Source: an uncultured bacterium
GTDB lineage: Bacteria; Auribacterota; JACPWU01
Direction of reading: 5' to 3'
DNA length: 32,000 bases
Assembly (NCBI GenBank): GCA_964640155.1
Contig: CAZXEQ010000001.1
Span: 276,403-308,402 of the forward strand
The position numbers and the translations under genes were made by a program. The notes under the pieces are model-generated. The model did not search any database. It had not been told where the DNA came from and was given only the letters and a program-made list of their open reading frames with translations. Below, piece after piece: positions 265 through 31,766 of the stretch (position 1 is the stretch's first letter; each line of letters starts with the position of its first letter).

Positions 265-297
265 CCAATGACCAAACTTCAAAGGCTTGGTCATTGG
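265..297 (-). repeat. Perfect 11-bp inverted repeat (hairpin) abutting the stop codon of the TolC-like gene, preceded by a CCAAAYT 7-nt periodic tract (240-262)
   Basis: ccaatgaccaa (265-275) and ttggtcattgg (287-297) are exact reverse complements with an 11-nt loop. The hairpin lies between the TolC-like stop (298-300) and the adaptor start (208). Confidence 0.6.
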
Positions 298-2431: not shown

Positions 2432-3553
2432 ATGAAAAAAATAATTTTTATATTTTTATTATTCATCATCATTGCGCCTCTTCAAGCCCAACCTCTTGAA
2501 AAAGGGCCCAATATCCCTGTTGAATCCTATTTGGTCTTCAATGTCGAAACAGACACTGTCATTTTCGAAAAAAATCCCAACGCCCCACATGCTCCTGCCA
2601 GTCTCGCCAAGTTAATGACACTTTATCTCACATTAGACGCTATTCGAAATGGGAAAGTGAAATGGGATCAACTTTACACTGCTCCAAAGCATGTATGTCG
2701 TGTAGGCGGCTCAAAAGCTAAACTTTGGCCAGGAGAAAAAATTTCCATTCGAGATCTTTATAAAGCAGCTGCAATCGGAAGTGCCAATGATGCAGCCGCT
2801 GCCCTTGCAGAAATCATCGGAGGCTCTCAAACAAATTTCGTGAATATGATGAATATAAAGGCTCGTTCTCTGGGATTAACTCAAACTCGTTTTGTCAGCC
2901 CCCACGGTCTTCCTCCACGTCCCAACTCTCCAAAAGATACGACAACTGCTGTTGATTTAAAAAATCTCACACTCGCAATTCTGAAAAACCATCCTGAAAT
3001 GCTTCAAACCACTTCTCTTAAAGAAACATATATTCGAAAAGGCAAATATCGCTTTAACAATACCAACAAACTTATTGGTAAATATGCAGGAATGACAGGA
3101 CTTAAAACGGGTTTTACAAATGCAGCAGGGTTTTGTCTGGTTTCAACTGTCAAACGTGGCAACTTAAGCGTTATTTGTGTGCTCTTAGGAGCAAAATCAA
3201 ATAAAGAACGTTTTTTGCATACACAGAAACTCCTGAACGAAGTTTTTTTACGATTTACTAATGTTTCTCACTTTTGCAAGGGAAAATCTTTTGAAATCCC
3301 CATTGCTGAAAGTGCTAATCGTGTGGATATTGGGATTGCACAAAGAAATCTTCTGTTTATAGGCCCTAAAAATGCGGTCTCAAAAATTCATTATGAGTTG
3401 TTTATCCCTCACCAGCTTAAAGCCCCTATTTCTCAAGGGCAAAAGATTGGAGAATATGTTGCTACATGGAATGGAAAAGTTCTGGCGAGAACAAATGTCC
3501 TTGCTCAAAAACCTATTGAGAAAAAAGGGCTGTTAAAGAGGATTTGGTCGTAG
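2432..3553 (+). CDS. D-alanyl-D-alanine carboxypeptidase (PBP5/6-type, peptidase S11)
   Basis: The track ORF starts at 2306 but reads through the RNA element. The in-frame ATG at 2432 gives MKKIIFIFLLFIIIAPLQA, a signal peptide. Contains SxxK (SLAKLMT), SxN (GSANDAA), KTG (LKTGFT) and the C-terminal PBP5 domain. Confidence 0.88.
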   Translation: MKKIIFIFLLFIIIAPLQAQPLEKGPNIPVESYLVFNVETDTVIFEKNPNAPHAPASLAKLMTLYLTLDAIRNGKVKWDQLYTAPKHVCRVGGSKAKLWPGEKISIRDLYKAAAIGSANDAAAALAEIIGGSQTNFVNMMNIKARSLGLTQTRFVSPHGLPPRPNSPKDTTTAVDLKNLTLAILKNHPEMLQTTSLKETYIRKGKYRFNNTNKLIGKYAGMTGLKTGFTNAAGFCLVSTVKRGNLSVICVLLGAKSNKERFLHTQKLLNEVFLRFTNVSHFCKGKSFEIPIAESANRVDIGIAQRNLLFIGPKNAVSKIHYELFIPHQLKAPISQGQKIGEYVATWNGKVLARTNVLAQKPIEKKGLLKRIWS

Positions 3554-7307: not shown

Positions 7308-7586
7308 ATGAACAAAGCACAACTTGTAGAAACAATTGTTAAAGATAAGAACTCCGGAATTGAATCAAAAGCTGCCGCAGAAAAAGCCATTGCTTCTGTA
7401 TTAAGCGCCATTCGTACCGGCCTTAAGAAAGACAAAGGAGTTCAGCTGATTGGTTTTGGTAATTTTGCCGTAAAAAACAGAAAAGCTCGCAAGGGTATCA
7501 ATCCTAAGACGGGTGAAAGCATTCAAATTAAGGCTAGCCGCACTGTGGGTTTCAAGCCTGGTAAAGCTTTGAAGGCTTCTGTCTAA
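7308..7586 (+). CDS. hup: HU-family nucleoid-associated DNA-binding protein
   Basis: 92 aa: MNKAQLVE...GFGNF..K.R.AR.GINPKTGE.I.I...R...FKPGK.LK. Strong AAAGGAGAA SD. Followed by an intrinsic terminator. Confidence 0.95.
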   Translation: MNKAQLVETIVKDKNSGIESKAAAEKAIASVLSAIRTGLKKDKGVQLIGFGNFAVKNRKARKGINPKTGESIQIKASRTVGFKPGKALKASV

Positions 7587-7606: not shown

Positions 7607-7646
7607 AAAAAAGCCCCGATAAACTCATCTCTATCGGGGCTTTTTT
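7607..7646. terminator. Bidirectional Rho-independent terminator between hup (+) and the oxidoreductase gene (-)
   Basis: A6-GCCCCGAUA (7613-21), 10-nt loop, UAUCGGGGC (7632-40), then U6. The A tract on the left gives a U tract on the opposite strand. Confidence 0.9.
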
Positions 7647-7690
7647 ATTTTAGATTTTTTCACAAAACCTTTCTGAAATGACATGTTAAA

Positions 7691-8858: not shown

Positions 8859-9170
8859 ATGAGCAAAGTATTAGAATTAAATGATGATTTGATAAAAGAA
8901 GTTTTTGCACTGTTATCTTGCAGCACAGATTATGAAGCAGGTTTAGCCTATGATTCAACCAGCCCAGACTTTTGGCAAAATGAAAATCTGGATGCAGATT
9001 ATGAAGTCAGTCAAGCCAAACGTGAATTTGCACTCGATGCTTTAAGAGGCGTCTTAAATTATCTTCAGCATCATGGATATCAATTGACTCAAGACGGAGA
9101 ACCCGTTGATTTCTCTGATGCCCTCAATACTTTAGTCCAAAAGTCTGAGGAAGAAGAAGTTTCTAACTAA
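8859..9170 (+). CDS. Hypothetical small acidic protein
   Basis: 103-aa ORF with AAAGGAGAA SD. No motif I recognise. Acidic C-terminus (SEEEEVSN). Confidence 0.55.
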   Translation: MSKVLELNDDLIKEVFALLSCSTDYEAGLAYDSTSPDFWQNENLDADYEVSQAKREFALDALRGVLNYLQHHGYQLTQDGEPVDFSDALNTLVQKSEEEEVSN

Positions 9171-9171
9171 A

Positions 9172-9250
9172 GTAGTTCGTAGTTCGCAATTCGTAAAAAC
9201 CTTTCATGAAAGGCCTTTTAACGAACTACTAAATACTAATTACGAATTAC
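9172..9250. repeat. Inverted pair of 7-nt-periodic arrays (GTARTTC units) around a central palindrome, located between convergent genes
   Basis: Left arm is GTAGTTC GTAGTTC GCAATTC GTAAAAA. The centre is CCTTTCATGAAAGG. The right arm read on the minus strand is GTAATTC GTAATTA GTATTTA GTAGTTC. GTAGTTCGT (9172-80) is the exact complement of ACGAACTAC (9221-29). Confidence 0.7.
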
Positions 9251-10496
9251 TGTACTTTATCATTGCAACTACTTCACAATGTTTTGTCTGCGGGAAAAGA
9301 TCAAAAGGTCTTATCTTCTTGACAGCATAGCCATGCTCGCTCAAAAAGCCGAGATCTCGAGCTAAAGTGGTGGGATTGCAAGACACATACACAAGCTTTG
9401 AAATTTTCAATTTCGCTAGAGCCTCGAGAACAAAAGGATCACACCCTGCTCTGGTAGGATCTATAATCGCACAGTCGGGCGTCTGCTTAAAGAATCTTTC
9501 AGGATGCTTTAATATTTTCTCCACACTTTTATTCCAAAACTCTACATTGCTCACTTGATTATTTTGAGCATTCATTTTTGCATAATCAATGGCATGAGAA
9601 TCTGCTTCAGCTCCCACGCAAAATTTGACTTTGGAGGCTAACAAAATGGCAAAAAGTCCTACTCCACAATAACCATCAAATAAGAACTCATTTCCTTTCA
9701 AATCTAAAAATCTTTCTACTGTTCGTACCATTTCTTCAACCACAGGCAAATTCACCTGAAAAAATGAAAGAGGATGAACTTTAAATTTTTTAGAGCACAC
9801 TTCTAAAGTCAAAGGGTCGTTTTCAGTAAAGGGCACTCGCCCATGTAAATTTAAAAAATAAGATTTTGCTCCATCTAAGGTATCCCAACACTTTACAACT
9901 TGTGCCCAACGTGGAATTTCCAACTCCCCTTTTCTATTTTTCTCTCTGATCTCATGAAACAGAGTATTAATATTCTCTGCACTGATCGGACAAGATTCAA
10001 TATCCAAAACCTTACGATTATCTTCATCCACAAAACCCATTTTTAATGTTTCTTGGCCATGAAAAATATGAAAATCCACGCGATTGCGATAATTAAATTC
10101 TTTTGGAGATCCAAAAATAGATTCCATTTCAAAATGCGAGAGGCGGCCGATTCTCTCTAAACTTTCTTTGACTTGGCTTTCTTTTAAACGAAGTTGATGA
10201 GAATATTCCACATGTTGATATTGACATCCTCCACATCGGCCATAGACAGAACAAATAGGTTGAACGCGATGAGGAGAGGCAATTAAAACTTCTTTAACTG
10301 CAGCTTTCAAAAAATTCTTCTTGATATGGGTAATTTCAGCAATAACCTTTTCCCCATCGAGCCCTCCTCTCACAAAAACCACAAGACCTGATAAATCTGC
10401 AGAAGGCGGATTAGCTAATCTCCCCACAGCCTCTCCTCCAAAAGCCACACGATCCAGCTGAACTTCGATTAAGTCACCTGCTTGATATGAAATCAT
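9240..10496 (-). CDS. TRAM-domain 23S rRNA (uracil-C5)-methyltransferase, RlmD/RumA family
   Basis: N-terminal TRAM domain, Fe-S Cys cluster (C..CGGCQYQH), SAM-MTase fold (DGYCGVGLF) and catalytic Cys region (YVSCNPTTLARD). Confidence 0.85.
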   Translation of the reverse strand: MISYQAGDLIEVQLDRVAFGGEAVGRLANPPSADLSGLVVFVRGGLDGEKVIAEITHIKKNFLKAAVKEVLIASPHRVQPICSVYGRCGGCQYQHVEYSHQLRLKESQVKESLERIGRLSHFEMESIFGSPKEFNYRNRVDFHIFHGQETLKMGFVDEDNRKVLDIESCPISAENINTLFHEIREKNRKGELEIPRWAQVVKCWDTLDGAKSYFLNLHGRVPFTENDPLTLEVCSKKFKVHPLSFFQVNLPVVEEMVRTVERFLDLKGNEFLFDGYCGVGLFAILLASKVKFCVGAEADSHAIDYAKMNAQNNQVSNVEFWNKSVEKILKHPERFFKQTPDCAIIDPTRAGCDPFVLEALAKLKISKLVYVSCNPTTLARDLGFLSEHGYAVKKIRPFDLFPQTKHCEVVAMIKYSNS

Positions 10497-10504
10497 TCAT
10501 CCTT

Positions 10505-11560
10505 TCAAAGATTTTCTTTTACAAATTTTCCTCTTAACTGTCCACAAGCCGCCTCAATATCCCTCCCCTTACTTCTACGGTAAGTCGCCACAACGCCTAA
10601 AGCCCTTAATTCATCTACAAAAGCATCCCCATGGTCGGATCTTTCAAGCCCGGTTCCTTCCACTTCATTATATTCAATGACATTGACGCTATGAGCAATC
10701 CCTTTTACCATCTGGGACAAAGACTGAGCATCGGAAAGAGCATCATTCACATCTTTTAACAAAAGGTATTCAAAAGTCACTCGACGACCTGTTTTGTCAG
10801 AATAAAGACGTAAAACATCCATTAATTCACTGACAGGATATTTTTGATTAATGGGCATAATCTGATCCCTAGATTCATCATGAGTACCATGAAGAGAAAT
10901 ACTCAATCTCACTTGATGAAGATCTTCTGTCACTTGAGTCCACTTCAATATACCAGGAACATATCCTGCAGTTGAAACGGTAATACGTCTTGCCCCAATC
11001 CCTAAGCCCCATGGAGCTTTTAAAATGGAAATACTTTTTACAAGATTTTCAAAATTAAGAAGGGGCTCTCCCATCCCCATAAAAACAATATGACTGGGTT
11101 TATCATCGCCTTTAAGATCTTGTTCAATGCTTAAAACTTGTCCAATAATTTCATGAACTTCTAAATTTCTTTTGAAACGAACTTGTCCACTTGCACAAAA
11201 CGTGCATTTCAAAGGGCATCCCACTTGAGTTGAAAGACAAATGGTTTTAAAACCCACTTGAGGCATCCAAACGGCTTCGACAAGTTCTCCATCACTCAAA
11301 CGAAAAAGATATTTCACGCTTTTATCATGATGAGAAAAAGCCTTCTCAACAACTTCAAGCGTAGAAACAGCAGCCTTTTCAGAAAGCACCTTTACAAGTG
11401 CTTGAGGCAAATTTTTCATTTGAGAAAAATCTTGAATCTTTTTCTGATAAATCCATTCTAAAACTTGTTTGGCTCGATAAGGCTCAAAACCCCAAGATTC
11501 ACACTGCTTTTGGAATTCTTCTAAAAGGAGATCTGTTAGAAATATCTTTTTCACAATCAA
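10505..11560 (-). CDS. rlmN: Radical SAM 23S rRNA/tRNA adenine-C2 methyltransferase RlmN
   Basis: YRAKQ...W, CPLKCTFCASG radical-SAM motif, MGMGEPL, C-terminal ..IEAACGQL. Confidence 0.92.
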   Translation of the reverse strand: MIVKKIFLTDLLLEEFQKQCESWGFEPYRAKQVLEWIYQKKIQDFSQMKNLPQALVKVLSEKAAVSTLEVVEKAFSHHDKSVKYLFRLSDGELVEAVWMPQVGFKTICLSTQVGCPLKCTFCASGQVRFKRNLEVHEIIGQVLSIEQDLKGDDKPSHIVFMGMGEPLLNFENLVKSISILKAPWGLGIGARRITVSTAGYVPGILKWTQVTEDLHQVRLSISLHGTHDESRDQIMPINQKYPVSELMDVLRLYSDKTGRRVTFEYLLLKDVNDALSDAQSLSQMVKGIAHSVNVIEYNEVEGTGLERSDHGDAFVDELRALGVVATYRRSKGRDIEAACGQLRGKFVKENL

Positions 11561-12039: not shown

Positions 12040-12109
12040 TTTCCTGTTTCCTGTTTCATGTTTCATGTTTCATGTTTCATGTTTCATGCCTCATGTTTCA
12101 TGATTGATG
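12040..12109 (+). repeat. Tandem heptanucleotide array, ten units of TTTCATG-like sequence, in the divergent acpS/mazG intergenic region
   Basis: Units in order: TTTCCTG x2, TTTCATG x5, CCTCATG, TTTCATG, ATTGATG. Contiguous, with no spacers. Confidence 0.9.
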
Positions 12110-12126
12110 GGATTAAGAACAAACTT

Positions 12127-12924
12127 ATGAAAAAAAGTAACAAGAAAAAAACCAAATCATCCTCTTTCGACCAATTGGTAGAAATCATGCGCATATTGCG
12201 AGGGCCCAAAGGCTGTCCGTGGGATAAAGAGCAAACCCTCAAAAGCCTCAAACCTTATATGGTTGAAGAATGCTATGAAGTTTGGGAAGCCATTGATAAC
12301 GGAAGTCCTTCCCAGATTAAAGAAGAACTTGGAGATCTTCTTTTTCAAGTGGTCTTTTGTGCCCAAATTGCCTGCGAAAACCTTGAATTTGATATTCAAG
12401 ATGTAGCAAAAACTGTTAAAGAAAAAATGACTCGCCGACATCCTCATGTTTTTGGAAAAACAAAAGTGAAAGATTCTGAGGAGGTCCTGTCAAACTGGGA
12501 ATTGATCAAAAAGAAAGAACGTTCTGAAAAAGCTTCTGTCCTGCAAGGCATTCCAAAACATCTTCCTGCTCTTTTGAAAGCTCATCGTACCCAAGCTAAA
12601 GCGTCTCGTGTCGGTTTTGACTGGAAAAAGACAGAAGAGATGATGGATAAACTTGAAGAAGAGTATGGTGAATTAAAAGAGGCCTATCGAGAAGGCAATA
12701 TCGAGCATATTGAAGAGGAAATGGGAGATTTGCTTTTCAGTGTTGTAAATGTTGCTCGAGGCTTAAAAATTAATCCCGAAGACGCTCTTCACAAAACCAT
12801 TCGTAAATTTACAAAACGTTTTCAGTATATTGAAAAGAAAATTGCAGATCGTGGGGAAAAACTCGAAGAAAAGTCCCTCGCAGAATTAGATAAGCTTTGG
12901 AATGAAGCAAAGAAAAAGTTGTAA
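12127..12924 (+). CDS. mazG: Nucleoside triphosphate pyrophosphohydrolase MazG
   Basis: LRGPKGCPWDKEQT..SL..Y..EE.YE and duplicated EE.GDLLF motifs (two MazG domains). The track start at 12058 lies inside the heptamer array; ATG 12127 (MKKSNKKK) is the more likely start. Confidence 0.9.
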   Translation: MKKSNKKKTKSSSFDQLVEIMRILRGPKGCPWDKEQTLKSLKPYMVEECYEVWEAIDNGSPSQIKEELGDLLFQVVFCAQIACENLEFDIQDVAKTVKEKMTRRHPHVFGKTKVKDSEEVLSNWELIKKKERSEKASVLQGIPKHLPALLKAHRTQAKASRVGFDWKKTEEMMDKLEEEYGELKEAYREGNIEHIEEEMGDLLFSVVNVARGLKINPEDALHKTIRKFTKRFQYIEKKIADRGEKLEEKSLAELDKLWNEAKKKL

Positions 12925-12957
12925 TTCGCAATGCGTTAAAAAGTTAAGACCTAACGA

Positions 12958-14784
12958 TCAATCCGCCCACTGATGTTGGCCACAATTCGCAAGAAATTCA
13001 TTGTATCTTCTTAGAATATCTTCTTCTCCATAGGTAGAAATAGAAGCTAGAAATCGATTGATATATTCTCTCACCGGCCGAGCCCTTGTTCTCCAGAAGG
13101 GAGTAAATGCGCTCAATTGACCTGAAATACTGGATTCCACAGCCACAATCCCAATGCTATAATCCGTACTTCCACTACTTTGTCTAGAGGAAATCAATGT
13201 CCTTAGAGGACAACTAATCATGCCATAGGGGCATAAAAGATATTGTTTTTCCCAATACAAAAGTTCATATCCCTGAGCCTCATCTGTCCAATAACCTCCA
13301 TAAGCCCCAAACTCTGAAGTATCCCAATGAATCAGAAAGGGATTTGCACTAAATTCTTCGCGCAAACGAATGGAAAAATCACTGGAAGCCGAATACCCAT
13401 AATTTGCTAATTCAGCTGGCGTCATCCAATGAGTTCTGAAAAAAAGTCGCTTTGCTTCCTCACCTGACAACCTTCTTCCTGTTTCATCCACTGGAGAAAA
13501 AGGATAATATCCATCAATAGAATAGATAATATCGCTATGATCGAGCATACGTGTTCCCGGCCTTATCCATCGAAATATCAATCCCTGATGTCCTGCAAAA
13601 TTACCAAGCCTTCCAGCAGCTCCAAAATTAAAAATATTTCTTACGGGAATATTAATACTTCGACATAAATCATAGAATAAATTAGAGACGGCAGGACAAC
13701 CTGTTGGTGCAAAAATTCCTCTGGAGATGCTTGTACTCCCATCACGCGCTGTAAAAGTTCTTGTCTCTTGTCTAAGACGATCCTTCAAGAAATTATGAGT
13801 CATATAATACTCAATCGTATTTTCAGGAGATAACGTGAAACCACTCCCATGCATGACATTTTGTGCAAACCAAAGGGTAAGATTTTCAAGAGTCTCTTCC
13901 TCAGTAGAGCCTAAAAGGTTCACATGTAGGCTAGAGTTTCTTCCAGTGATAAAGTTGTAGCCATCGCGAGGATCTCCTAAAAGTCCTATTCCTCTCGCAA
14001 ACGGATTATTTGCACGATGAGAAAGTTGAAAATCACGATGAGGGCGAATATGCTCGGGATAACCTACTAATCTATAATAATCTTCCCTCGAACGACCTTC
14101 TGAACTTCTATAGGCATCAACAATTCTACTGTGATAGCGATCAGAAGATAGAAGTTCAGCCAATTCATCTTCTGGGAGAGCAAAGATCGACCAAGAAAAA
14201 TGCCCCATCGCTTCATGCCAGAGAACACACGCACAATGAGCCAAATAGGTATCTAAAGCTTCATCCTCTGTTAAATACATAATAGGATTAAATGAAAGTC
14301 CTCCAGCAGCCCAAGTCTGTTGATTCATATTATTTCTAGGATTGGGTAAATGTATTCCAAGATTTGGATCTCTATTGAGCATTTTTTGAAAGAACTCGTT
14401 TAAACGGTCTTTCCATTCATGAGGCCAATAATCATAAGATAGATGTGCCCCTGTCGCTGTTTCCCAAATAATTTGACGACGAAGTTCAGGATGAGTGCAC
14501 AAACGTTCGTCTAAAGTTCCAACTGAAGAATAAAGAGTTAAACAACCTCCTTCTGTAGCTGGAACAATCACAGGACGTGCACCTTCTGGAGTTGCATCTG
14601 GCGGAGGAAAATAAATGGATTCTTGGGGTTTGATATTAAAAAGATCTGTCAACTTTTGAGGAGTTTGGTCATATGATTTATCTTTGTAATCCTGTCCTTC
14701 CAAGGAAGTTATCACAAAAAAACTAAATAGAATCAAAAGGGTATTGAGAGAAATACGAAGTGGACTGGTTGTAAAAGCCTTCAT
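12958..14784 (-). CDS. Secreted hypothetical protein with a possible transglutaminase-like Cys-His-Asp core
   Basis: 608 aa with signal peptide (LLILFSFFVITSLEG). TGCPAVSNLFYDLCRSINIPVR (Cys363), GHQGLIF (His399) and LDHSD (Asp415) have the spacing typical of transglutaminase-like cysteine protease folds. The rest is unrecognised. Confidence 0.6.
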   Translation of the reverse strand: MKAFTTSPLRISLNTLLILFSFFVITSLEGQDYKDKSYDQTPQKLTDLFNIKPQESIYFPPPDATPEGARPVIVPATEGGCLTLYSSVGTLDERLCTHPELRRQIIWETATGAHLSYDYWPHEWKDRLNEFFQKMLNRDPNLGIHLPNPRNNMNQQTWAAGGLSFNPIMYLTEDEALDTYLAHCACVLWHEAMGHFSWSIFALPEDELAELLSSDRYHSRIVDAYRSSEGRSREDYYRLVGYPEHIRPHRDFQLSHRANNPFARGIGLLGDPRDGYNFITGRNSSLHVNLLGSTEEETLENLTLWFAQNVMHGSGFTLSPENTIEYYMTHNFLKDRLRQETRTFTARDGSTSISRGIFAPTGCPAVSNLFYDLCRSINIPVRNIFNFGAAGRLGNFAGHQGLIFRWIRPGTRMLDHSDIIYSIDGYYPFSPVDETGRRLSGEEAKRLFFRTHWMTPAELANYGYSASSDFSIRLREEFSANPFLIHWDTSEFGAYGGYWTDEAQGYELLYWEKQYLLCPYGMISCPLRTLISSRQSSGSTDYSIGIVAVESSISGQLSAFTPFWRTRARPVREYINRFLASISTYGEEDILRRYNEFLANCGQHQWAD

Positions 14785-14840: not shown

Positions 14841-14869
14841 ATGAGGGGGGATCTCGTACGAATCACTAC

Positions 14870-16506: not shown

Positions 16507-16547
16507 AAGTTTTAAATATGAAGCAGATTGGACTTTTTCATCAAACG

Positions 16548-17720
16548 TTAAATCTTAAAAAATCTCTTTACCTTATCTAGAAAAGCCTTATGCATCGGCA
16601 TAGCACCTTCCGAGTTTATCTCAGCAAAACGTTTCAAAAGATTTTTCTGCTCTTCTGCTAACTTAACAGGGATTTCAATTAAAATTTTTATCATCTGATC
16701 CCCTTTGCCATATCCTTGAAGATGTGGAAGACCCTTTCCCTTTAAACGAAAAGTCTTTCCTGTTTGTGTTCCACTTGGGATTTTGAGCATGGCTCTTCCT
16801 TCTAAAGTGGGAACTTCTACTTCTCCACCCAAAGCCGCAATATAAAAAGGAATTGGGACTTCACAAATCAAATCATTTCCATGCCGCTCAAAAAATTCAT
16901 CTTCTTCCACATGAATTAAAATATAGAGTGAACCCGGTTCACCGCCAACCATCCCCGCATTACCTTCCCCACTCATCTTTAAACGAGAACCTGTTTCAAC
17001 GCCTGCTGGAATTTTAATAGAAATTTTTCGGGGAGCTTTACTTCGTCCTTCACCACGACAGCGCTTACAGGGATGCGGCATCACTTGCCCTCGACCACGA
17101 CATCGGGGACACGTTTGACTCACCGTAAAAAATCCCTGATTACGACGTACTTGACCCTGTCCATGACATTGAGAACACTCTTCGCGACGAGACCCTGCTT
17201 CAATCCCTTCTCCTTTACATTCCTGACATTTTTCTAAATGTTCAAATTCTATCTCTTTTTTACAACCAAATGCAGCATCTCGCAAACTAATCGAAAGATC
17301 ATAGCGCAAGTCTTCTCCATCCAAATCCTGATCTCCTGCACGCTGTGAATGACTAAATCCAAAAATATCATCAAAAATACTGCCGCCTCGACCGCCCCGA
17401 CCCCCACCCCCAAACTCTCCCATAAAGGTACGAAGGGCTTCTTCTAAATCAATCCCAAAACCTCCTCCACCACCTGCACCACTACGTGCTCCAGCCCCTA
17501 CGCCTGCATGACCAAATTGATCATAACGAGCTTTTTTATCGGCATCACTTAGCACTTCATATGCTTCAGAAGCTTCTTTAAATTTTTCCTCAGCCGCTTT
17601 ATCTCCAGGATTGCGATCAGGATGATATTTCATCGCCAATTGACGATAAGCTTTTTTCATCTCATCGGCAGAAGCTGTTTTACTCACACCTAAAATTTCG
17701 TAATAATCTCTTTTTGCCAT
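16548..17720 (-). CDS. dnaJ: Molecular chaperone DnaJ (type I: J domain, G/F region, four CxxCxGxG zinc-finger repeats)
   Basis: DYYEILGV...HPDRN, Gly-rich linker, [32 protein letters not shown]. Confidence 0.97.
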
Positions 17721-17762
17721 AATAAATTTAATTCTCCATCCTCAACTTCACATCTAAAATGT

Positions 17763-17788
17763 ATTCACTCTCTTTGGGTTAAGTGAAT
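17763..17788. promoter_or_regulatory. Degenerate CIRCE-like inverted repeat upstream of dnaJ
   Basis: ATTCACT (17763-69), 12 nt, AGTGAAT (17782-88), 43-68 nt upstream of the dnaJ start. It shares only the CACTC/AGTG core with the CIRCE consensus TTAGCACTC-N9-GAGTGCTAA. Confidence 0.25.
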
Positions 17789-17851
17789 CACAATACACGA
17801 TACGCGATTTGTGATCAAGCCCCTATTAAATCAAAAACAAAGACCGTTTAC

Positions 17852-17959
17852 AAAAAAGTGTGTCCTCTACAAATACGGGTGACACTCGACGGGGAGCCCC
17901 GCCGCGCGCAATTTTTCGTGAGCACGGTGGGGACGACGAGTGGCAGGTCCCGTTTCTTA
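17852..17959 (+). ncRNA. Unclassified GC-rich structured RNA element, copy 2 (minimal 79-nt core), in the leader of giant GspK-like gene 1
   Basis: Core 17875-17953. P1 is ACGGG/CCCGU. P2 is CACUCG (17883-88) with CGAGUG (17937-42). P3 is CCCCGCCG (17897-904) with CGGUGGGG (17925-32), containing a G-U pair that is only valid on the + strand. The conserved loop is CGCGCAAUUUUUCGUGAGCA. Conserved junctions are UGA, ACGGGGAG and GCAGG. No + strand gene lies upstream; the ATG of the next gene is about 150 nt downstream. Confidence 0.6.
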
Positions 17960-18106
17960 CCTAGTCCTAAAGGACGGCGAAAAGCCTGAAGAGACACTTT
18001 TATAGAGGAAAACTAATCTAATATCTTTAATTGCAATTTAAAAGTAACACTATTATTATAATATGCTTTCACGATATTAAATCTATTTTTAGACATCAAA
18101 TATTGT

Positions 18107-21100
18107 ATGTTTATCAATCATCATAAGTCTGCATCTACTGGAGCCGCCCTGGTTCTCACCGTGGGAATGCTTGCCCTTTTGACTTTGCTTGCCGTTGCTT
18201 TTGTAACACTCACACGAACTGAAGAAAAAATGAGTCGTTCATCTATTTATAGATGCCAAGCTCGAGCCATTGCTTCTGCAGGTCTTCATTATGCCATTGC
18301 CATTCTTCAAAAAGATCTACACGACGACAAAGCTGCAACAACTTTAACAGATCCTCAAATGTTGGATTCTTTCGATGAAGAATGGTCGACACTTTTTCTG
18401 GGAGCAGATATTCAACTAAGTACTTATGATGCTCGAATCTCTCGATGGATTTACATTCGAAAAACAACGGATCCAGACAGTCCCATCGTGGGTCGATTTT
18501 CTATTTTAATTCAAGATGAGGCAAGTAAGATCAATATCAATACAGCTGGAATAGGCCATCAAAACGAAGGTTGTAGCACCCATGAAATTGATTTGGGCGA
18601 CATCCCTGGGATTGGCGTTGCCTTAAGAGATGATATTGTCAACTATCGCAATGGTGCTAACACAGTTCCGGGTTCAAATGGTTCAGGCCTCACTCTTTAT
18701 TTAGCAGATGATAACAACAATACAACCCCGCTCAAAAAAAATAATATTGACGATGATGCAGATACTGCAACAGAGGGAATAGACAGTCTGGACTCCGATG
18801 AAGGGCAAGATAACGGTGACCCGAGTGAATTCGACCCAGAATTTCCGTATGGAGACGACAGACCTTTCACAGACATTGAAGAATTGGAAGCCATTCCTGG
18901 AATCGGTAACAACATTGTAAAAGCAGCAAAAAACTATGCCACAATCTGGAGCTATGATCTAAATCAATACTGGAGTAAAGAAACTCAAAGTTGGAACAAA
19001 AAAATTAATTTAAATCATTTTCTTTCTACAGGTCAACTTTACGGACTTGATTTGACTGCCACATCCAAACTTCATCGCTTGGCAGCTAACATCATAGATT
19101 ATAGCGACTGCGATATTTACCCCACTTTCACTACTTCGGATAAGGACAATCCTATTTCAAGCAATTCCTATCTCGGGATTGAAGGATTACAATTCAATGA
19201 AATCATGACTCAAACAGCGGCCATCATCCGAGAAAATAATGCCCATCATGTCAATCGTACAAGCGCTTGGCACCCTCGCTCAACAGATGTAGCCTACGAT
19301 GAAGCAGATGAAGGACAAGTCGGGACATGGAGTTGGCCTTGGGACAATGCAAATTACAATGTCACGATTCAGATTGAAGCAAGTACAACCGAAACAACAG
19401 CACCTATCAGCTATGTTATCGAAGGTGTCTCCGGAACCATTGATCCTCCAGCTACGAGCAGTGGTCCTATTCCCATCACCATTACTGGTGGAGAAATTAA
19501 TTTAACACTCACAGCAGCTCAAGACCCAACAACGCCTCCTCAAAAATCTTCTTTTGATAAGATAAAAATATCTGGTTTAGGGAAATATATTGAAATCATT
19601 AATATCAGCCAGCAAGGCATTTCTTTTGATACAGGAGATGATGATGCATGGAGACTTTTCTTCAATCCATCGCTTGTCTCCCCTGTCGATGATGGTCTTC
19701 CTACCAAAGTTGTTGGGGATTCTTATTTGTCGCTTGCCTCCGCCCTCCATCCCTCTACTTCTATTACTCTGAATGGAATAGACGAGAATGTTCCTACTCA
19801 TGATCCACCCAACTATGACTATTTAATCATCGCAGACAGTCTTTACGCATTAGATGCACTGCATGGATCTAGCGACGACGGATCTTGGTCAAAAACGGAA
19901 TCTGAACCCGGAAAAGTTTTAGTTCTTCCAGATCTTCTCTCTCATCTTCTTGAAGGAACAGATTTGGTTTTAACTGACTGGAAAAATAATGTAATCGCAT
20001 ATGCTCCGTCTTCGAATGAAAAATTTAATATCACTGCGTACGATACATCTTCAACAACGTCTTATGCCTCTTTTTCTCGCATTTCTGCCGTCAATCAACA
20101 AAATGCCTGGTTGATTACAACAAGTACAAGTCCTGGGACAAAAAATTTCAATGCCATTAATTCAGATAGTGGAACAGACAACCTTTTCTGGAAAGTTAAA
20201 GATCGTTCATTCGCGAATCTAGGTGAATTAGGAGATGTTTTTTTAGGAACCAGTAACAATGCAACGCATGACATTGAAACCAGCTATAGCCCTCTGTATT
20301 TTTCTAGAATTACTTTGTCTTCCAAAAGAATTGAAGCAGAGGACGCTGATATGCCTTTACCCTGGAATGCTCAAGAAATATCTTTCGAAAATGATGGAAC
20401 GACACGCTATCTTGCTCCTGGAACATCGGGAGGATGGATATGGAACTGGACTTTTAATCCCACTAACACTTTACCGGATATTGATAAACCTTTTCGTCTT
20501 CCTGTCAACAACACCACATTTGATCTACTTGTTTACGGACAATTTCTTTATCATTTTGATTCACCTATGGGAATTCATCGAAATCCTAAACCCAATCATG
20601 GAGTGAGCCTACCATCTGTCACCATATCAGGAAACAACATCAATTTTCCAATCTATGCAAATGGTTTGGCCCCAAAATTAGATTATATTATTCTGACTCC
20701 CGAGCCCTATACTTGGGGAAAAATCAATATCAATACAGCTTCCAGACAAACTTTAAAGGCCTTACCAGGCATAAGCACATCACTGGCCAATCATATCCTC
20801 GCCTATCGACAAGGAAATTCCGGGCCCTTTAACCAAATTCAAGAAGTCACAGAAGTTTCTAATATTGGGGAAACAACGTTTAAGCCCATTTCCAATCTTA
20901 TTACCGTCAGAAGCGATACCTTTCGTATTCTCGTTAAAGGCCAACAAGTTATGGATATGAATGAAGATAACACCATCGATTCTAATGAAATTATGTCCAC
21001 AATCACTTTAGATGCCATTATAGACAGAAATCCGTCTGGGCAAAGGCCTAACACCAACGATCAATATCAGATTAAGAGTTTAAAACATGAGTACTCCTAA
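18107..21100 (+). CDS. Giant GspK-like minor pseudopilin (paralog 1, 997 aa) with inserted beta-sandwich/LTD-like modules
   Basis: GspK-type N-terminus lacking Glu+5 (STG|AALVLTVGMLALLTLLAV). IQDEASKININTAG + IPGIGVALRDDIVNYR, and a second GKININTAS..LKALPGIS..LANHILAYR helix-hairpin-helix pair. C-terminal ..LITVRSDTFRILV... as in T2SS protein K. About 650 extra residues compared with typical GspK. Confidence 0.75.
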   Translation: MFINHHKSASTGAALVLTVGMLALLTLLAVAFVTLTRTEEKMSRSSIYRCQARAIASAGLHYAIAILQKDLHDDKAATTLTDPQMLDSFDEEWSTLFLGADIQLSTYDARISRWIYIRKTTDPDSPIVGRFSILIQDEASKININTAGIGHQNEGCSTHEIDLGDIPGIGVALRDDIVNYRNGANTVPGSNGSGLTLYLADDNNNTTPLKKNNIDDDADTATEGIDSLDSDEGQDNGDPSEFDPEFPYGDDRPFTDIEELEAIPGIGNNIVKAAKNYATIWSYDLNQYWSKETQSWNKKINLNHFLSTGQLYGLDLTATSKLHRLAANIIDYSDCDIYPTFTTSDKDNPISSNSYLGIEGLQFNEIMTQTAAIIRENNAHHVNRTSAWHPRSTDVAYDEADEGQVGTWSWPWDNANYNVTIQIEASTTETTAPISYVIEGVSGTIDPPATSSGPIPITITGGEINLTLTAAQDPTTPPQKSSFDKIKISGLGKYIEIINISQQGISFDTGDDDAWRLFFNPSLVSPVDDGLPTKVVGDSYLSLASALHPSTSITLNGIDENVPTHDPPNYDYLIIADSLYALDALHGSSDDGSWSKTESEPGKVLVLPDLLSHLLEGTDLVLTDWKNNVIAYAPSSNEKFNITAYDTSSTTSYASFSRISAVNQQNAWLITTSTSPGTKNFNAINSDSGTDNLFWKVKDRSFANLGELGDVFLGTSNNATHDIETSYSPLYFSRITLSSKRIEAEDADMPLPWNAQEISFENDGTTRYLAPGTSGGWIWNWTFNPTNTLPDIDKPFRLPVNNTTFDLLVYGQFLYHFDSPMGIHRNPKPNHGVSLPSVTISGNNINFPIYANGLAPKLDYIILTPEPYTWGKININTASRQTLKALPGISTSLANHILAYRQGNSGPFNQIQEVTEVSNIGETTFKPISNLITVRSDTFRILVKGQQVMDMNEDNTIDSNEIMSTITLDAIIDRNPSGQRPNTNDQYQIKSLKHEYS

Positions 21101-22923: not shown

Positions 22924-23764
22924 CATATTGTCATGCGTCGTGCGTTATACGTCGAGCGTAAAAAGATATATTCCCTCAAGAACCACGCATCACGCATCAC
23001 GTATCACGCACAACGGTTTCTCAATGATTGAGTTACTGAGTGCTCTCGCTATTTTTAGCATCATGGGCCTCGCCCTTTATATTGTTTTTGATAGGGCCAA
23101 TCAAGTGTGGAAACATGGAGAATATAAGTCTGATCAATATCAAAATGCCCGACTCGCATTAGACACCATGTCACGAGAACTGACTTCTTGCTTGATTGGA
23201 ACAGGTGGGCCCACTTCTTTTCAAGATAACACAAATAAACGTCCTTATCTGTGGTCACTGGATAATTCACAGACTATTTCAGGACAAACTTATGATCGTG
23301 ATGAAATCTATTTTACTTTTGTAAGAGCCAACACCATTTATGAAGTTGGCTATTCTATTGATGATCAAAGTAATAGTAACTGCAAAGATGATATTTTGAG
23401 AAGGGCCTATACCTCTGGACTTTCAAGTGGCACAGATTTTGATATTGCAACAACAGATTTTGGATCCAATGATGATTTTGCGTTTAAAGTCACAGATTTG
23501 GATATCAAATTTATTTATAAAGACTCTTCTGGAAATTATCAAAAGGCAAATGTATGGGATACACGCATGGGTTATTTGACAGGAGGAGGAACCACTACCT
23601 CTGGCACCACCATTGACGATGGGCAACTACCGGATTGGATTGAAATCTCCATGCGTATTGTCGATCAGGAAACCCTTAATAAAAACAATGGTAATCCTGC
23701 AAAAGCTGATCGAAAAGAGTTCAAAACACTTATTCCCATGAATCAAAGGAGATTTTCCAGATGA
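22907..23764 (+). CDS. GspJ/PilW-like minor pseudopilin
   Basis: NG|FSMIELLSALAIFSIMGLALYIVFDRANQVW....ARLALDTMSRELTS, as in GspJ-class proteins. TTG start at 22907 follows AAGGTGGTGA; alternatives are TTG 22928 and GVG-frame GTG 22940. The stop overlaps the next gene's ATG (ATGA). Confidence 0.7.
   Translation: MNFLNNILSCVVRYTSSVKRYIPSRTTHHASRITHNGFSMIELLSALAIFSIMGLALYIVFDRANQVWKHGEYKSDQYQNARLALDTMSRELTSCLIGTGGPTSFQDNTNKRPYLWSLDNSQTISGQTYDRDEIYFTFVRANTIYEVGYSIDDQSNSNCKDDILRRAYTSGLSSGTDFDIATTDFGSNDDFAFKVTDLDIKFIYKDSSGNYQKANVWDTRMGYLTGGGTTTSGTTIDDGQLPDWIEISMRIVDQETLNKNNGNPAKADRKEFKTLIPMNQRRFSR
22933..23011. repeat. Inverted pair of heptamer arrays (RTGCGTN on the left, CACGYAT x4 on the right) at the gspI/gspJ junction, inside the gspJ-like leader-coding region
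   Basis: Left arm is ATGCGTC GTGCGTT ATACGTC GAGCGTA (22933-60). Right arm is CACGCAT CACGCAT CACGTAT CACGCAC (22984-23011). The arms pair as periodic 5-bp blocks (18 of 27 positions complementary). Confidence 0.7.
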
Positions 23765-26658
23765 AAATAGTCGACCCTTTGAAAGAAAAAAATTCTCAAG
23801 GCATCGCTCTGATTCTTGTCATGGGGACTCTTGCACTACTCACAGTTCTTGCAGTTTCTTTTACCACATTGATGCGCCATGAAGAAAAATCTAGCCGGGG
23901 ATCATTTCAATTTATTGAAACTCGTGAGCTTGCTACGGCCGGACTTCAATACGCCATCTCTATTTTAACAAAAGATTTAAATGACGATCAAACTTCTAAT
24001 CAACTTTATGATGCTTTTGATGAGGATTGGATTACCCTTTTTACAGGAACAAGTGTTGATTTAGACCAAGACGGAACTTCAGACTCACGATGGATTAACA
24101 TTCATGAAAATGGAATTCTGATCGGCCGTTATGCCATATGCATTCAGGACGAAGCTGGGAAAGTCAATATCAACACAGCCGCTTCAACCTCTCAAAATGA
24201 AGGATGGTCTCCTTATGAAACCAACATGGCTGTTTTGCCCGGTTTAAGCTCAACACTTGCGAGTAATATTCGTAACTATCGGTATGGAGCCAATACTGTC
24301 CCAGGGCTGAACTCCAGTCAACTCGCACCCGATGGGGATGACGATGAAACCTCACTTCCCTTTCGTAATGACGGCATTGACAACGATGGAGATGGATCTA
24401 TCGATGAAATTACTGAAGGAGAAGATGATCCTATTGAATTTAATCCTGAAATTCCCTATGGAGATGATCAACCTTACTCCTCTATTGAAGAATTAGATAA
24501 AGCCAGTAGCAGCTTAACTTCAAGTAATGTTAAAACGCTTAAAAATTATACAACTATCTCCAGTTATGATCTCAATCAATATTGGAATGGGGCTTGGTCT
24601 AAGAAAGTTAATTTAAATCATCTTCTCACCACAGACTCTCTTTACAATTTAGTTCAGGGATCTTCTGGATCTAATTCATTCAGACTTACAGCCAATATGA
24701 TTGACTCTTTGGATCGAGATAATTATCCCACAGCAAAATGGTCTTCCAGTGCTTCATTCAATTCAACTAATGCTTATATCGGGCTAGAAGGACTTCAATT
24801 TAATGAAGTCATGAGACAAACCAAATGGTTTGCTGGAGAAAACAGTACGGCTGATCGTACAGGTTCTGGGTGGAGTGCTTTTTCAACAGAAGACAGGGGA
24901 AATGAAGGAACAACAGGCCAATGGTCCTGGCCATGGGATAATGGAACTTATAACATGAGAATTTATGCGCGTACAGAGGCTGCAACCCCTGTCACTTATA
25001 CGTTGGAAACACTTTCAGGATCTGTAACAACACTTCCCACCCAGGTGAACAATGTGACTGTTTCAGGAGGCAGAATTAATTTACAACTTCTTGCCCCTAC
25101 TCAATCGGGCGGAGGACAACAATATTCCTATTTTGACAAAATTGAAGTTCAGGCTGGGAAATACATTGAAATCATCAACATCAGTCAAAGAGCTGTCACT
25201 GTTGATAAAACAGGAAGCGATTCTTGGAATCTTTATTTCGGAGGGTCTCTCAGTGCCCCCTCTGCTGATGGACTTCCTGCAAGACAAAGTGGAGGAACAG
25301 CTCTTGCCCTATCTGGAGCAACTTATCCCACCAGTGGAGATATTACTTTATGGTCGGCAGCTCCTACCACCTATCGCTATTTAATTATTGCAGACAGTCT
25401 TTATGGACTCGATGCCACTTATGGCAATAATAATGGGTCATGGTCCGGTGGATCTGCTCCAGAATCAGAAAGACTTTTAGTTCTTCCACAACTTTTGTCT
25501 AATCTCAATTCTGGCACAGACCTCACACTCACAGACTCTCAAGGTAATGTTATTGCGTATGCACCTGCTACAGCGCAATTTAATATTCTAGGATTTGATG
25601 ATGCTACCCTGGCTACTTATCAAAGTTTTTCTAGATCTTCACCTGTCAATCAACAAAGTGCATGGACCACTTCTACAGCCACAAACGAACAAACACCCGG
25701 AAGAAATAATAATGGAGTGACACAAAGTAATACGGGAGAAAATAAATATTGGTTGATCAAAGATCGCCCCTTTGCCAGCATCGGAGAATTAGGAGATGTA
25801 TTTTTAGGAACTCAAAATAATCAGACTTATGATTTGGAAACATCTGGAAATTATCTGGATAAAATAACCCTAGCAGCTAAACGATTGGAAGCTGAAAATG
25901 CAAACTCTATTTCCTGGAGTAACTCAGAAACAGCTTCTGATCAGGATGGAACCACACGCTATGTTGCTTCCAATAGTAATCGCACACTTGCAAGATGGGA
26001 TTGGACGTTTGACATCAGCATTACTACCGACATCAGCAAACCTTTTCGACTTAAAAGTAATACTTCTTATGACATGATTGCATATGGGCAATTCGCAAGC
26101 AATTTTGAATCCCCCAGTGGAACATCTCGTTGGGTAAAACCTAATCACAGCTCTGCTCTAGACTCTCAAACGGTTGGTAATCTCATAACCAACGGTATTC
26201 GTTTCGATGCTTATGGAAATACTTCCGTAATTCCTAAATTTGATTTTTTAATTTTAACTCCAGACCCTTATACCTGGGGCAAAATCAATATTAATACAGC
26301 TTCCAGCACTGTTCTTCAAAGTTTAAAAGGTATTAGTAGTACGCTTGCCTCAAACATTGTCAGTTATCGCCCTTTATCGAATAGCAATCCTTTTAATACC
26401 ATACAAGAGTTGATGTCCGTTTCAGGGATTGATGAAACGGAGTTTAAGCCAATTGCCAATCTTATTACTGTACGTAGTGACGTTTTTAGAGTCATTGTAA
26501 GAGCTGAGAAAATTGTCGATGCTAATAACAACGGTACCGTTGATTCTGGGGAAAATATTTCAACCATTACATTAGATGCGATTGTAGATCGTAATCCTTC
26601 CGTCCGTGATCCTGGTACAACGGATAAACACAGAATTGAATCATTGAGATATGAGTAA
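23761..26658 (+). CDS. Giant GspK-like minor pseudopilin (paralog 2, 965 aa) with inserted beta-sandwich/LTD-like modules
   Basis: NSQG|IALILVMGTLALLTVLAV, IQDEAGKVNINTAA, GKININTASSTVLQSLKGISSTLASNIVSYR, LITVRSDVFRVIV. Collinear with paralog 1 along its whole length. AAGGAGA SD. Translationally coupled to the gspJ-like gene. Confidence 0.75.
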   Translation: MKIVDPLKEKNSQGIALILVMGTLALLTVLAVSFTTLMRHEEKSSRGSFQFIETRELATAGLQYAISILTKDLNDDQTSNQLYDAFDEDWITLFTGTSVDLDQDGTSDSRWINIHENGILIGRYAICIQDEAGKVNINTAASTSQNEGWSPYETNMAVLPGLSSTLASNIRNYRYGANTVPGLNSSQLAPDGDDDETSLPFRNDGIDNDGDGSIDEITEGEDDPIEFNPEIPYGDDQPYSSIEELDKASSSLTSSNVKTLKNYTTISSYDLNQYWNGAWSKKVNLNHLLTTDSLYNLVQGSSGSNSFRLTANMIDSLDRDNYPTAKWSSSASFNSTNAYIGLEGLQFNEVMRQTKWFAGENSTADRTGSGWSAFSTEDRGNEGTTGQWSWPWDNGTYNMRIYARTEAATPVTYTLETLSGSVTTLPTQVNNVTVSGGRINLQLLAPTQSGGGQQYSYFDKIEVQAGKYIEIINISQRAVTVDKTGSDSWNLYFGGSLSAPSADGLPARQSGGTALALSGATYPTSGDITLWSAAPTTYRYLIIADSLYGLDATYGNNNGSWSGGSAPESERLLVLPQLLSNLNSGTDLTLTDSQGNVIAYAPATAQFNILGFDDATLATYQSFSRSSPVNQQSAWTTSTATNEQTPGRNNNGVTQSNTGENKYWLIKDRPFASIGELGDVFLGTQNNQTYDLETSGNYLDKITLAAKRLEAENANSISWSNSETASDQDGTTRYVASNSNRTLARWDWTFDISITTDISKPFRLKSNTSYDMIAYGQFASNFESPSGTSRWVKPNHSSALDSQTVGNLITNGIRFDAYGNTSVIPKFDFLILTPDPYTWGKININTASSTVLQSLKGISSTLASNIVSYRPLSNSNPFNTIQELMSVSGIDETEFKPIANLITVRSDVFRVIVRAEKIVDANNNGTVDSGENISTITLDAIVDRNPSVRDPGTTDKHRIESLRYE

Positions 26659-26674
26659 AAAGCTATAACGCGAA

Positions 26675-31661: not shown

Positions 31662-31672
31662 GTAAAAACCGA

Positions 31673-31762: not shown

Positions 31763-31766
31763 TATT

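Follow-up and report, generated by a model that had tools for sequence, protein, structure and literature searches.

The stretch of DNA analysed here, 32,000 nucleotides in its full length and referred to in the following as the window, stems from an uncultured bacterium of the Auribacterota (lineage JACPWU01; GenBank assembly GCA_964640155.1, contig CAZXEQ010000001.1, positions 276,403 to 308,402). At or across its gene boundaries lie arrays of tandemly repeated 7-nt units, some of which are arranged as inverted pairs that form long hairpins, and the nature and origin of these arrays are the subject of this report. Their neighbours include a rumA/rlmD-like gene, acpS, mazG, dnaJ, a set of pseudopilin genes, a GT9 glycosyltransferase gene and an lpxL-like gene. 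A gene map of the window was built from open reading frames (ORFs) and Pfam matches, and 26 start codons and 26 stop codons were counted on it. Period-7 arrays were called with Tandem Repeats Finder (TRF) and with a simple self-match scan, for which 100 dinucleotide-preserving shuffles served as the null. The arrays belong to the described class of heptanucleotide simple sequence repeats (SSRs; STRR, 'LSSR'), encountered here in a little-studied phylum.

Heptanucleotide arrays and hairpins of the window

The self-match scan returned 7 period-7 segments, compared with 1.0 ± 1.0 (maximum 5) in the shuffles, and six of the seven are intergenic in a window whose intergenic share is 7%. Periods 4, 5, 8, 10 and 11 stayed at background, and the signals at periods 9 and 15 trace to coding repeats. 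Autocorrelation of the intergenic DNA, a check proposed in an earlier note on this DNA, gave z = 8.2 at lag 7, z = 7.6 at lag 14 and z = 3.4 at lag 21, well beyond chance; lag 7 stays at z = 6.3 once the array at 12040 is removed, and coding DNA displays a period of 3 only. Furthermore, the motif GTARTTCG is found six times in the window against an expectation of 1.06. The units follow each other head-to-tail in at least two to three copies, and in this, as well as in their specificity for period 7 and their above-chance frequency, the arrays correspond to the heptanucleotide SSR/LSSR class. They are present where the earlier note had placed them, and its description of an architecture common to sites with unrelated unit sequences, situated at or across gene boundaries, holds true.

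Three pairs of arrays (9172/9219, 22933/22984 and 31671/31737) have the convergent, opposite-strand arrangement of the inverted pairs of Rehm et al. 2015. They form long imperfect stem-loops (9172-9251, 22933-23011 and 31671-31764) with folding energies of -20 to -40 kcal/mol and fold z scores of -3.0 to -5.2, and none of 200 shuffles folds equally well. When one arm is slid along the other, the top complementarity (64-79%) occurs at offsets exactly 7 nt apart, so that the 'slippery' pairing in registers shifted by 7 nt, originally read from the letters, is indeed a property of these arms. The loops of the different hairpins are unrelated.

The leftmost array (240-259) is a direct one that reads AATTTGG, AGTTTGG, AATTTGG on the minus strand; it is recognized by TRF (2.9 copies of CCAAATT), by the scan and in the sequence itself. 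It lies just 3' of a 13-bp hairpin (265-297, minus strand; fold -19.6 kcal/mol, z -2.4) that directly follows the stop codon of a gene for an outer-membrane efflux protein and gives a terminator-like match. The gap is co-directional, with the efflux gene stop at 298 and the start of the next minus-strand gene at 207, and this hairpin, followed by the T-rich heptamer array, is the sole array-associated site that resembles an intrinsic terminator.

The left arm of the pair at 9172-9251 (9172-9199; units GTAGTTC, GTAGTTC, GCAATTC, GTAAAAA) begins 2 nt past the stop of a 103-aa gene (8859-9170, plus strand), and TRF assigns it 3.4 copies of GTAGTTC at 9172-9195. The hairpin centre (9200-9218) is a small palindrome, CCTTTCATGAAAGG, between an A-run and a T-run, as seen in the sequence and the fold. 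The right arm (9219-9251; TRF, 3.6 copies at 9227-9251) has the reverse complement GTAATTC, GTAATTA, GTATTTA, GTAGTTC, GTTA and holds the last codons and the stop of the rumA/rlmD-like gene (9240-10496, minus strand), the stop sitting within a GTAATTC-GTAA unit. Both arms are defined by TRF, the fold and the register scan, the left one also by its sequence and the right one also by comparison with a related locus, L001, that is introduced below.

A direct array of about ten units (12040-12109: TTTCCTG twice, TTTCATG five times, CCTCATG, TTTCATG, ATTGATG; TRF, 9 copies of TTTCATG at 12040-12102; also found by the scan and in the sequence) occupies the divergent gap between acpS (minus strand) and mazG (plus strand). 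At the other end of mazG, an array remnant (12921-12943, plus strand; GTAATTC, GCAATGC, GTTAAAA, AG), recognized in the sequence and by comparison with L001, provides the stop codon of this gene (TAA, 12922-12924). An imperfect minus-strand remnant, GTAGTGATTCGTACGAG (14853-14869), directly after the stop of a DUF1731 epimerase gene, may be the inverted partner of the 12921 remnant across an intervening 608-aa gene, a weak reading of the sequence. A single minus-strand GTAGTTCG unit (26671-26678), detected in the GTARTTCG search, lies within a 16-nt convergent gap and contains the TAG stop (26675-26677) of the GT9 glycosyltransferase gene (26675-27652, minus strand). The earlier note had such units directly following the stops at 12922, 14870 and 26675; units are present there, but those at 12921 and 26671 overlap, and indeed contain, the stops, and the one at 14870 is the imperfect GTAGTGATTCG.

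The pair at 31671-31764 is situated in a gap between co-directional genes and precedes, on its upstream side, the lpxL-like gene (start 31661, minus strand). Its left arm (31671-31712; GAGTTAA, GAGTTAA, GGGCTAA, GAGTTAT, GGGGTTAA, GAGCTA), defined by TRF and the fold, has a 14-nt super-unit, and the repeat that TRF reports at 31671-31709 (5.4 copies) is actually the 14-mer GTTAAGGGCTAAGA. The right arm (31737-31764; AGCC, CATAGTC, CTTAACT, CTTAGCC, CTA) is apparent from its sequence, the fold and comparison with the related loci L106 and L099.

The remaining pair, at 22933-23011, is not intergenic. It lies in the part of the fourth pseudopilin gene that codes for the leader; the gene starts with TTG at 22907 behind the strong ribosome-binding site AAGGTGGTGAG. 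This start is assigned because the TTG is conserved, the ribosome-binding site precedes it and the N-terminus that follows (L/M-N/S-F-L-N) is common to the homologues P0126 and P0128 and to the corresponding gene of L106. The left arm (22933-22960, plus strand; ATGCGTC, GTGCGTT, ATACGTC, GAGCGTA) rests on sequence, fold, leader comparison and register scan, and the right arm (22984-23011, plus strand; CACGCAT, CACGCAT, CACGTAT, CACGCAC) on TRF (3.9 copies of CACGCAT at 22984-23010), sequence and fold. Both arms code for part of a hypervariable leader peptide of 37 residues, and the right one stops 3 nt short of the Gly/Phe prepilin cleavage motif (GGT TTC at 23015). For the pseudopilin on record, P0121 (246 aa), the start is placed at ATG 23024, so that the Gly/Phe processing site is missing from it; there is a 17-nt overlap between the coding region of the 37-residue leader and the stop of the gene before it.

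Turnover of the arrays among relatives

The nearest match in the genome collection is a Candidatus Auribacterota metagenome-assembled genome whose rumA product is 93% identical, and a scan of metagenomes yielded distant relatives only (at most 38% amino-acid identity). No public contig was returned when the rumA product of the window itself was looked up as an exact match. The L001 locus is syntenic with the window and has 11 kb in common with it at 81-91% nucleotide identity. The 9172 pair and the 12040 array are absent from L001, where the corresponding gaps measure 20-50 nt, and in several relatives the tight gap between rumA and the 103-aa gene amounts to 9-20 nt without a hairpin seed. 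L001 has an inverted heptamer pair in its rsmE/dnaJ gap, the window counterpart of which has none, and its mazG/epimerase gap contains a different, intact inverted pair (TCTTGCG.../ACGCAAG...) where the window has the 608-aa gene and the remnants. The 608-aa ORF (12958-14784, minus strand), which is without a Pfam domain and lies between the inverted remnants GTAATTCG (12921) and CGAATCAC (14859), is absent from L001; L099 has a 651-aa ORF with no recorded Pfam match at the same position.

The comparison with L001 also bears on gene annotation. The true start of mazG is at 12127, since in L001, which lacks the array, the gene begins with a homologous MKK; the ATG at 12058 within the TTTCATG array is hence not the mazG start. 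Stop codons in all three frames, which the earlier note attributed to units containing TAG or TAA, are offered by perfect repeats only; the gene ending at 9170 meets them in two frames only, and none follow after 22923. The arrays reach into the ends of genes and furnish them with new stop codons (rumA, mazG, GT9), and the lesson for annotation is that starts and C-termini called within arrays are unreliable, as with mazG at 12058 and the pseudopilin at 23024.

Among the sites common to the window and L001, a single one is conserved, namely the palindrome ATCACAA - CACAATA CACGATA CGCGATT - TTGTGAT at 17787-17815, 67-95 nt upstream of dnaJ, recognized by its sequence, its fold (z -2.0) and the L001 comparison. 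It had been listed as a further period-7 example, and three units within a palindrome are there; the units are, however, loose and below the TRF threshold, and unlike every other array the site is identical in L001 over 35/35 nt, with flanks that are about 85% identical. We take it for a probable operator, placed upstream of dnaJ, and not for one of the fast-evolving arrays. As ATCACAA-N15-TTGTGAT it is not known to fit either the CIRCE or the HAIR consensus. No Rfam match was obtained at E ≤ 1 in 17700-18120, nor at the gathering threshold in the whole window.

Further loci, of more distant relatives, were obtained through protein look-ups and exhibit the design with other units. In a lineage set of 125 kb, the arrays are restricted to weakly constrained DNA as well: 26 of the 31 are intergenic, compared with 10% intergenic DNA (P = 1.5e-21), a concentration in non-coding DNA as in the heptanucleotide SSR/LSSR class. 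L100 carries at least 11 arrays in 21 kb, with units ATCAAAA/TTTTGAT and GTCNACR, several of which are paired; 9 arrays are present in L103 and 7 in L106, and L102, L104 and L105 have almost none. At the pil3/pil4 site of L106, orthologous to that of the window, different units (GTGAATC/GATCCAC) surround a homologous loop, while its lpxK/lpxL site has the GAGTTAA/GGGCTAA unit family of the window with another copy number and loop; copy number at conserved sites differs between species-level relatives. An identical 27-mer of the GAGTTAA/GGGCTAA family is found at a non-orthologous site, at the contig end of L099, which represents the same genome as L106. The Logan contig L099 in fact ends (1-41) within a heptamer array of which 27 nt are identical to window 31671-31697, consistent with assemblies that break at multi-copy arrays. 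A second pseudopilin leader, GspH-like and encoded in L106 (4498-4560), has the arrays TCGTACG (2.5 copies) and ATCCCGC (2 copies) upstream of an FTLIELL motif, and prepilin leaders may be a recurrent home for heptamer repeats.

Beyond this lineage, distant rumA homologues gave access to 1.06 Mb of non-redundant DNA from the Planctomycetes-Verrucomicrobia-Chlamydiae (PVC) group, mostly Verrucomicrobiota with 55-63% G+C. This set contains 82 period-7 arrays, compared with 5, 10, 7 and 3 for periods 5, 8, 10 and 11, and the design is thus abundant far outside the lineage to which the earlier note had thought it might be specific. An inverted partner lies at most 140 nt away for 30 of the 82 arrays (37%), and 52 are single. 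More than 40 different units are in use (the commonest is AAAACGT), a diversity that favours a length-specific rather than a sequence-specific process. The two arms of a pair have expanded independently, and their copy numbers are unequal: 2.5 versus 8.5 units in L024, and 10 versus 17 units in L069, where the latter pair (16533-16771) includes an 8-copy run of CACGCAT, the very unit of window 22984. L069 has a further array site at 11123-11213. At the orthologous site upstream of rumA, the arms are of the TGCGTGT type in L069 and L040 and of the CGTAAAA type in L024 and L050, with unrelated loops; L024 is 91% identical to L069, yet its unit families and loops at this site are entirely different. 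In strain pairs that are 99.3-99.9% identical (L069, L070, L021), the arrays are identical, and no 7-nt indel was found in arrays among nine near-identical pairs of fetched loci, a finding that is neutral with regard to slippage. The arrays are hence stable at a divergence under 1% and turn over at a divergence of about 10%.

Known repeat classes and the origin of the arrays

Cyanobacterial STRR were reportedly described by Mazel et al. in 1990. The earlier note was not aware of any described family with this organisation; the class is a described one, and Rehm et al. 2015 (PMC4692102) report inverted pairs of heptamer arrays as well. Bacterial repeats of this length have thus been on record from 1990, and their excess across genomes from 2007. 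As summarized in later papers (PMC4679880, PMC4692102), Mrazek et al. 2007 found that heptanucleotides dominate prokaryotic long SSRs and are in general excess; these summaries also attribute to Mrazek et al. the idea that 7 nt corresponds to the DNA segment held by the polymerase. Like the long SSRs and STRR, the arrays studied here consist of tandem 7-nt units in period-7 excess, are intergenic, comprise several units per genome and vary among relatives; they differ from them in their occurrence in Auribacterota and Verrucomicrobiota, in their units and in their shortness (3-10 units).

Close parallels are offered by the GGGAATC/GGGGAYT repeats of Xanthomonas and Nostoc (PMC4692102), which are biased toward intergenic DNA, prefer about four units, lie near start or stop codons, and are enriched in co-directional and depleted in divergent ORF gaps. 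There are 70-75 convergent (inverted) array pairs per Xanthomonas genome, with the potential to form stem-loops; array length varies from one species to another, genes of every functional class are found next to the arrays, and the study identified no function for them (PMC4692102). The window and its relatives share with them the intergenic location, mostly about four units, convergent pairs, the co-directional bias, the proximity to starts and stops, the variation in length among related genomes and the functionally mixed neighbours. However, theirs is one G-rich, G-quadruplex-capable family, whereas many AT-rich or mixed units are used here, and GTAGTTC, TTTCATG, CACGCAT, GAGTTAA and CCAAATT are devoid of the tracts of three or more G residues that a G-quadruplex demands. 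Furthermore, 83% of the sites are conserved between two species there, while most are unconserved here at about 90% identity.

The TAACTGA repeats that MacGregor 2015 (PMC4679880) describes from Beggiatoaceae, Cyanobacteria and Bacteroidetes differ between strains by indels in 7-nt steps, have other heptamers mixed in, are present or absent among close relatives, and contigs break at them. With these repeats our arrays have in common the intergenic location, the low copy number (2-6 copies), mixed heptamers, presence/absence, contig breaks and the recurrence of one unit in distant lineages; the TAACTGA repeats, in contrast, are almost always direct, lie just upstream of starts, include one inverted set only and have one dominant unit. 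None of the heptamers TAACTGA, CCCCAGT, TTGGTCA, CAACAGT, GGGAATC and GGGGATT occurs twice in tandem in the window, and our literature search turned up no paper on heptanucleotide repeats in Verrucomicrobia. As the window and its relatives show, the heptamer phenomenon extends to uncultured PVC phyla, with many units per genome, frequent inverted pairs and fast turnover, and these lineages provide useful comparative data with which slippage may be told apart from a mobile or otherwise active process. Two other comparisons were discarded: the 7-nt core of integron attC sites (GTTRRRY) is misfitted by GTTAAGA and GTTAAGG, the genes being housekeeping ones in both orientations, and HutP-like UAG-N4 arrays or the GTAG start of repetitive extragenic palindromic (REP) elements, considered as leads for GTAGTTC, are fitted by none of the other units.

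On balance, and with some reserve, we favour the view that the arrays are heptanucleotide SSRs that arose through strand slippage in weakly constrained DNA, that some of them were probably turned into hairpins by template switching, and that these have at most a generic role as RNA hairpins. In this scheme, for which the slippage hypothesis is cited by Rehm et al. 2015 (PMC4692102), a 7-nt stretch would be tandemly duplicated by replication strand slippage where constraint is weak, that is, in intergenic gaps, in the last codons of genes and in the hypervariable prepilin leader. Slippage in many bacteria would favour the 7-nt register, and as 7 is not a multiple of 3, the resulting arrays would hardly persist in coding sequence that is under constraint. 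For the inverted pairs, two origins are conceivable: the arms of a short palindrome might each expand independently and would then automatically be complementary in every 7-nt register, or a template switch, a process able to generate hairpins (PMC8794818), might copy an existing array in inverted orientation. The long, imperfect, multi-register hairpins would be transcribed together with their neighbours and probably act at most as generic RNA stem-loops in 3'-end protection, partial termination or intercistronic structure, rather than as a dedicated sequence-specific signal. Over time, arrays would be deleted, re-created and replaced on the scale of about 10% divergence.

Several observations weigh against an origin by slippage. 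No slippage event has been caught, and the absence of array indels in strains that are 99.3-99.9% identical implies that hypermutability is not a property of short arrays. Genomes that are 91% identical have entirely different unit families and loops at one orthologous site in Verrucomicrobiota, and de novo elements of 70-100 nt in gaps of 9-20 nt fit insertion or some active process better than growth by slippage, one step after another. Within a genome, several sites share a unit family (GTARTTCG for the window, ATCAAAA for L100, and CTTAACT/CTTAGCC, with two sites, for the L099/L106 genome), an identical 27-mer is found at non-orthologous sites in two genomes, and the slippage model leaves the 7-nt register itself unexplained. 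The de novo elements, the wholesale replacement and the recurring unit families keep an active or mobile process in place as the main rival, to which we grant a small but appreciable probability.

REP units are conserved palindromes of 20-35 nt; each family has a single consensus and is accompanied by a RAYT transposase, and REP elements are transcribed into the 3' regions of mRNAs, where they are able to stabilize transcripts. The proposal that the window harbours mobile or copied hairpins of this kind, akin to REPIN (e.g., Bertels and Rainey 2011, PMC3116915), bacterial interspersed mosaic elements (BIMEs) or MITEs (miniature transposable elements with inverted repeats) and placed by an enzyme acting on single-stranded DNA hairpins (e.g., a REP-associated Y1 transposase) or by gene conversion, is unlikely in our estimate. 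REP, BIME and REPIN elements likewise form hairpins from inverted pairs in extragenic DNA at gene boundaries and are present or absent among relatives, and the clean presence/absence of 70-100-nt elements between close relatives, the complete replacement of arms and loop at one orthologous site, the dispersal of unit families within genomes (with the 27-mer shared by non-orthologous sites) and the termination of the L099 contig within an array, which a multi-copy repeat would lead one to expect, all speak for mobility. GTAG, the conserved 5' motif of REP, is also the start of the commonest unit of the window, a lead only, since the other units do not fit. What weighs against it is that the arms are 7-nt periodic and that units and loops vary by site: neither a loop nor a consensus over the full length is common to any two hairpins, the unit sequences number more than 40, arm copy numbers are unequal, and instead of one conserved full palindrome only arm fragments of 8-27 nt recur. 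The indel boundaries relative to L001 exhibit neither a target-site duplication nor the common core of a MITE, 52 of the 82 PVC arrays are single, and no Y1 transposase was found in any fetched locus, in which the only transposase-type Pfam matches were one IS110-family transposase and one rve_3 integrase-core fragment; of the 621-kb source contig, the window covers 32 kb. A related possibility, which we also judge unlikely, is that an active, length-specific and sequence-independent process builds, spreads and replaces heptad-armed hairpins at gene boundaries across the PVC group, as alternative terminators or mRNA-end insulators; it may be driven by an enzyme that targets hairpins, by a mobile element or by some peculiar trait of the replication machinery. 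If true, such a process would explain the de novo 70-100-nt elements, the wholesale replacement and the unit families (CGTAAAA, CACGCAT, CTTAACT) that extend across sites and phyla.

The suggestion of the earlier note that long slippery hairpins stop or insulate transcription at gene ends as a dedicated design is not supported, and we regard it as doubtful. The hairpins are stable and, like intrinsic terminators, lie immediately past stops, some of them in bidirectional position between convergent genes; several arrays begin at or within such stops (the 9172 pair, 12921, 26671), the 265-297 hairpin precedes a T-rich array, and, on the minus strand, UUUUU comes after the 31671 hairpin, right in front of the lpxL start. 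Array density is also higher in co-directional and convergent than in divergent gaps of the lineage set (2.9 and 1.9 versus 1.0 per kb; 14/47, 3/17 and 2/19 gaps hold arrays, which are small numbers). On the other hand, 5 of the 26 start codons and 5 of the 26 stop codons of the window lie within 40 nt of an array, so that the 3' ends are not enriched over the 5' ends, and arrays are not confined to 3'-end locations, as they occupy divergent promoter gaps (12040; L103 4788-4880) and, within an operon, a coding leader (22933-23011). The stems are long, AT-rich and mismatched, no consistent U-tract accompanies the array-associated hairpins, and the G+C-rich stem with U-tract of an intrinsic terminator is present in the 265-297 hairpin only. 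A consensus terminator scan of the window found no excess of terminator-like sites over the shuffles (the counts for sigma-70 promoter and terminator consensus scans were at or under those of the shuffles), it missed the 9172 and 31671 hairpins, and its only match overlapping an array (23015-22988, minus strand) runs antisense to the pseudopilin genes. That the organism uses ordinary terminators is shown by the gap between the HU gene and a zinc alcohol dehydrogenase gene, which at about 7609-7650 has an intrinsic terminator of canonical, bidirectional build, with an A-run, a stem (GCCCCGATA...TATCGGGGC) and a T-run. Together with the sites being mostly unconserved between close relatives (about 90% identity) and the 63% of PVC arrays that are without an inverted partner, the inconsistent U-tract, the lack of a scan excess and the canonical terminator elsewhere argue against a dedicated terminator design. 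Multivalent binding of a protein that would contact RNA or DNA with a footprint of 7 nt, for which HutP and its UAG-N4-UAG-N4-UAG target provide a precedent (the GUAGUUCGUAGUUCG pattern), is improbable: the strict 7-nt spacing, the CGT/ACG or TAG/TAA core common to many units, the position of several arrays at most 40 nt from start codons and the translational regulators proposed for TAACTGA repeats (MacGregor 2015, PMC4679880) would suit it, but the diversity of units is excessive for one specificity, the arrays are unconserved at orthologous genes, both strands and orientations are in use and no candidate protein was identified. Phase variation, in which a change by one unit would shift promoter spacing or a reading frame, seems to us very improbable. 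The pair at 22933-23011, placed as it is in the coding leader of a surface-structure protein, would indeed cause a frameshift upon gain or loss of 7 nt, the second pseudopilin leader in L106 also has a heptamer array, and the 12040 array lies within a divergent promoter region; the neighbours, however, are mostly housekeeping genes (rRNA methyltransferases, mazG, dnaJ, lpx genes), copy number is equal among near-identical strains, the arrays are short (3-4 units), and phase variation is not favoured for the Xanthomonas and Nostoc heptamers either (PMC4692102).

Other features of the locus

Apart from the heptamer arrays, the AT-rich genome contains a GC-rich dispersed element in two copies (2170-2305 and 17880-17990) with a core of about 60 nt (GCCCCRCCGCGCGCAAYTTTTSSTGAGCACGGTGGGG...AGTGGC). 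Each copy lies upstream of a plus-strand gene, one for a D-Ala-D-Ala carboxypeptidase and the other for a 997-aa GspK-like protein, and the second copy is part of a stretch, about 170 nt long, that L001 lacks. The element has no Rfam match and may represent either a small mobile element or a leader RNA with a structure. L001 also has a GC-rich insert, likewise about 170 nt long, between rlmN and rumA (7354-7526), where the gap of the window measures 8 nt; alignment relates the two window copies to each other, and the L001 insert is unrelated to both. The 530-nt gap after rumA in L104 holds 3-4 copies of a tandem repeat of about 47 nt (...GTCCTCGAAGAGGGCAAGATGACTCATGCAAAAGATTAATTCATCA...; about 2990-3250), for which a CRISPR array was ruled out, as the 'spacers' are identical.

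Finally, two GspK-like proteins of 997 and 965 aa with a C-terminal HHH_3 domain, encoded at 18107-21100 and 23761-26658, flank the four pseudopilin genes of the window, and this set may represent a duplicated or atypical minor-pilin module of a type II secretion system or pilus.

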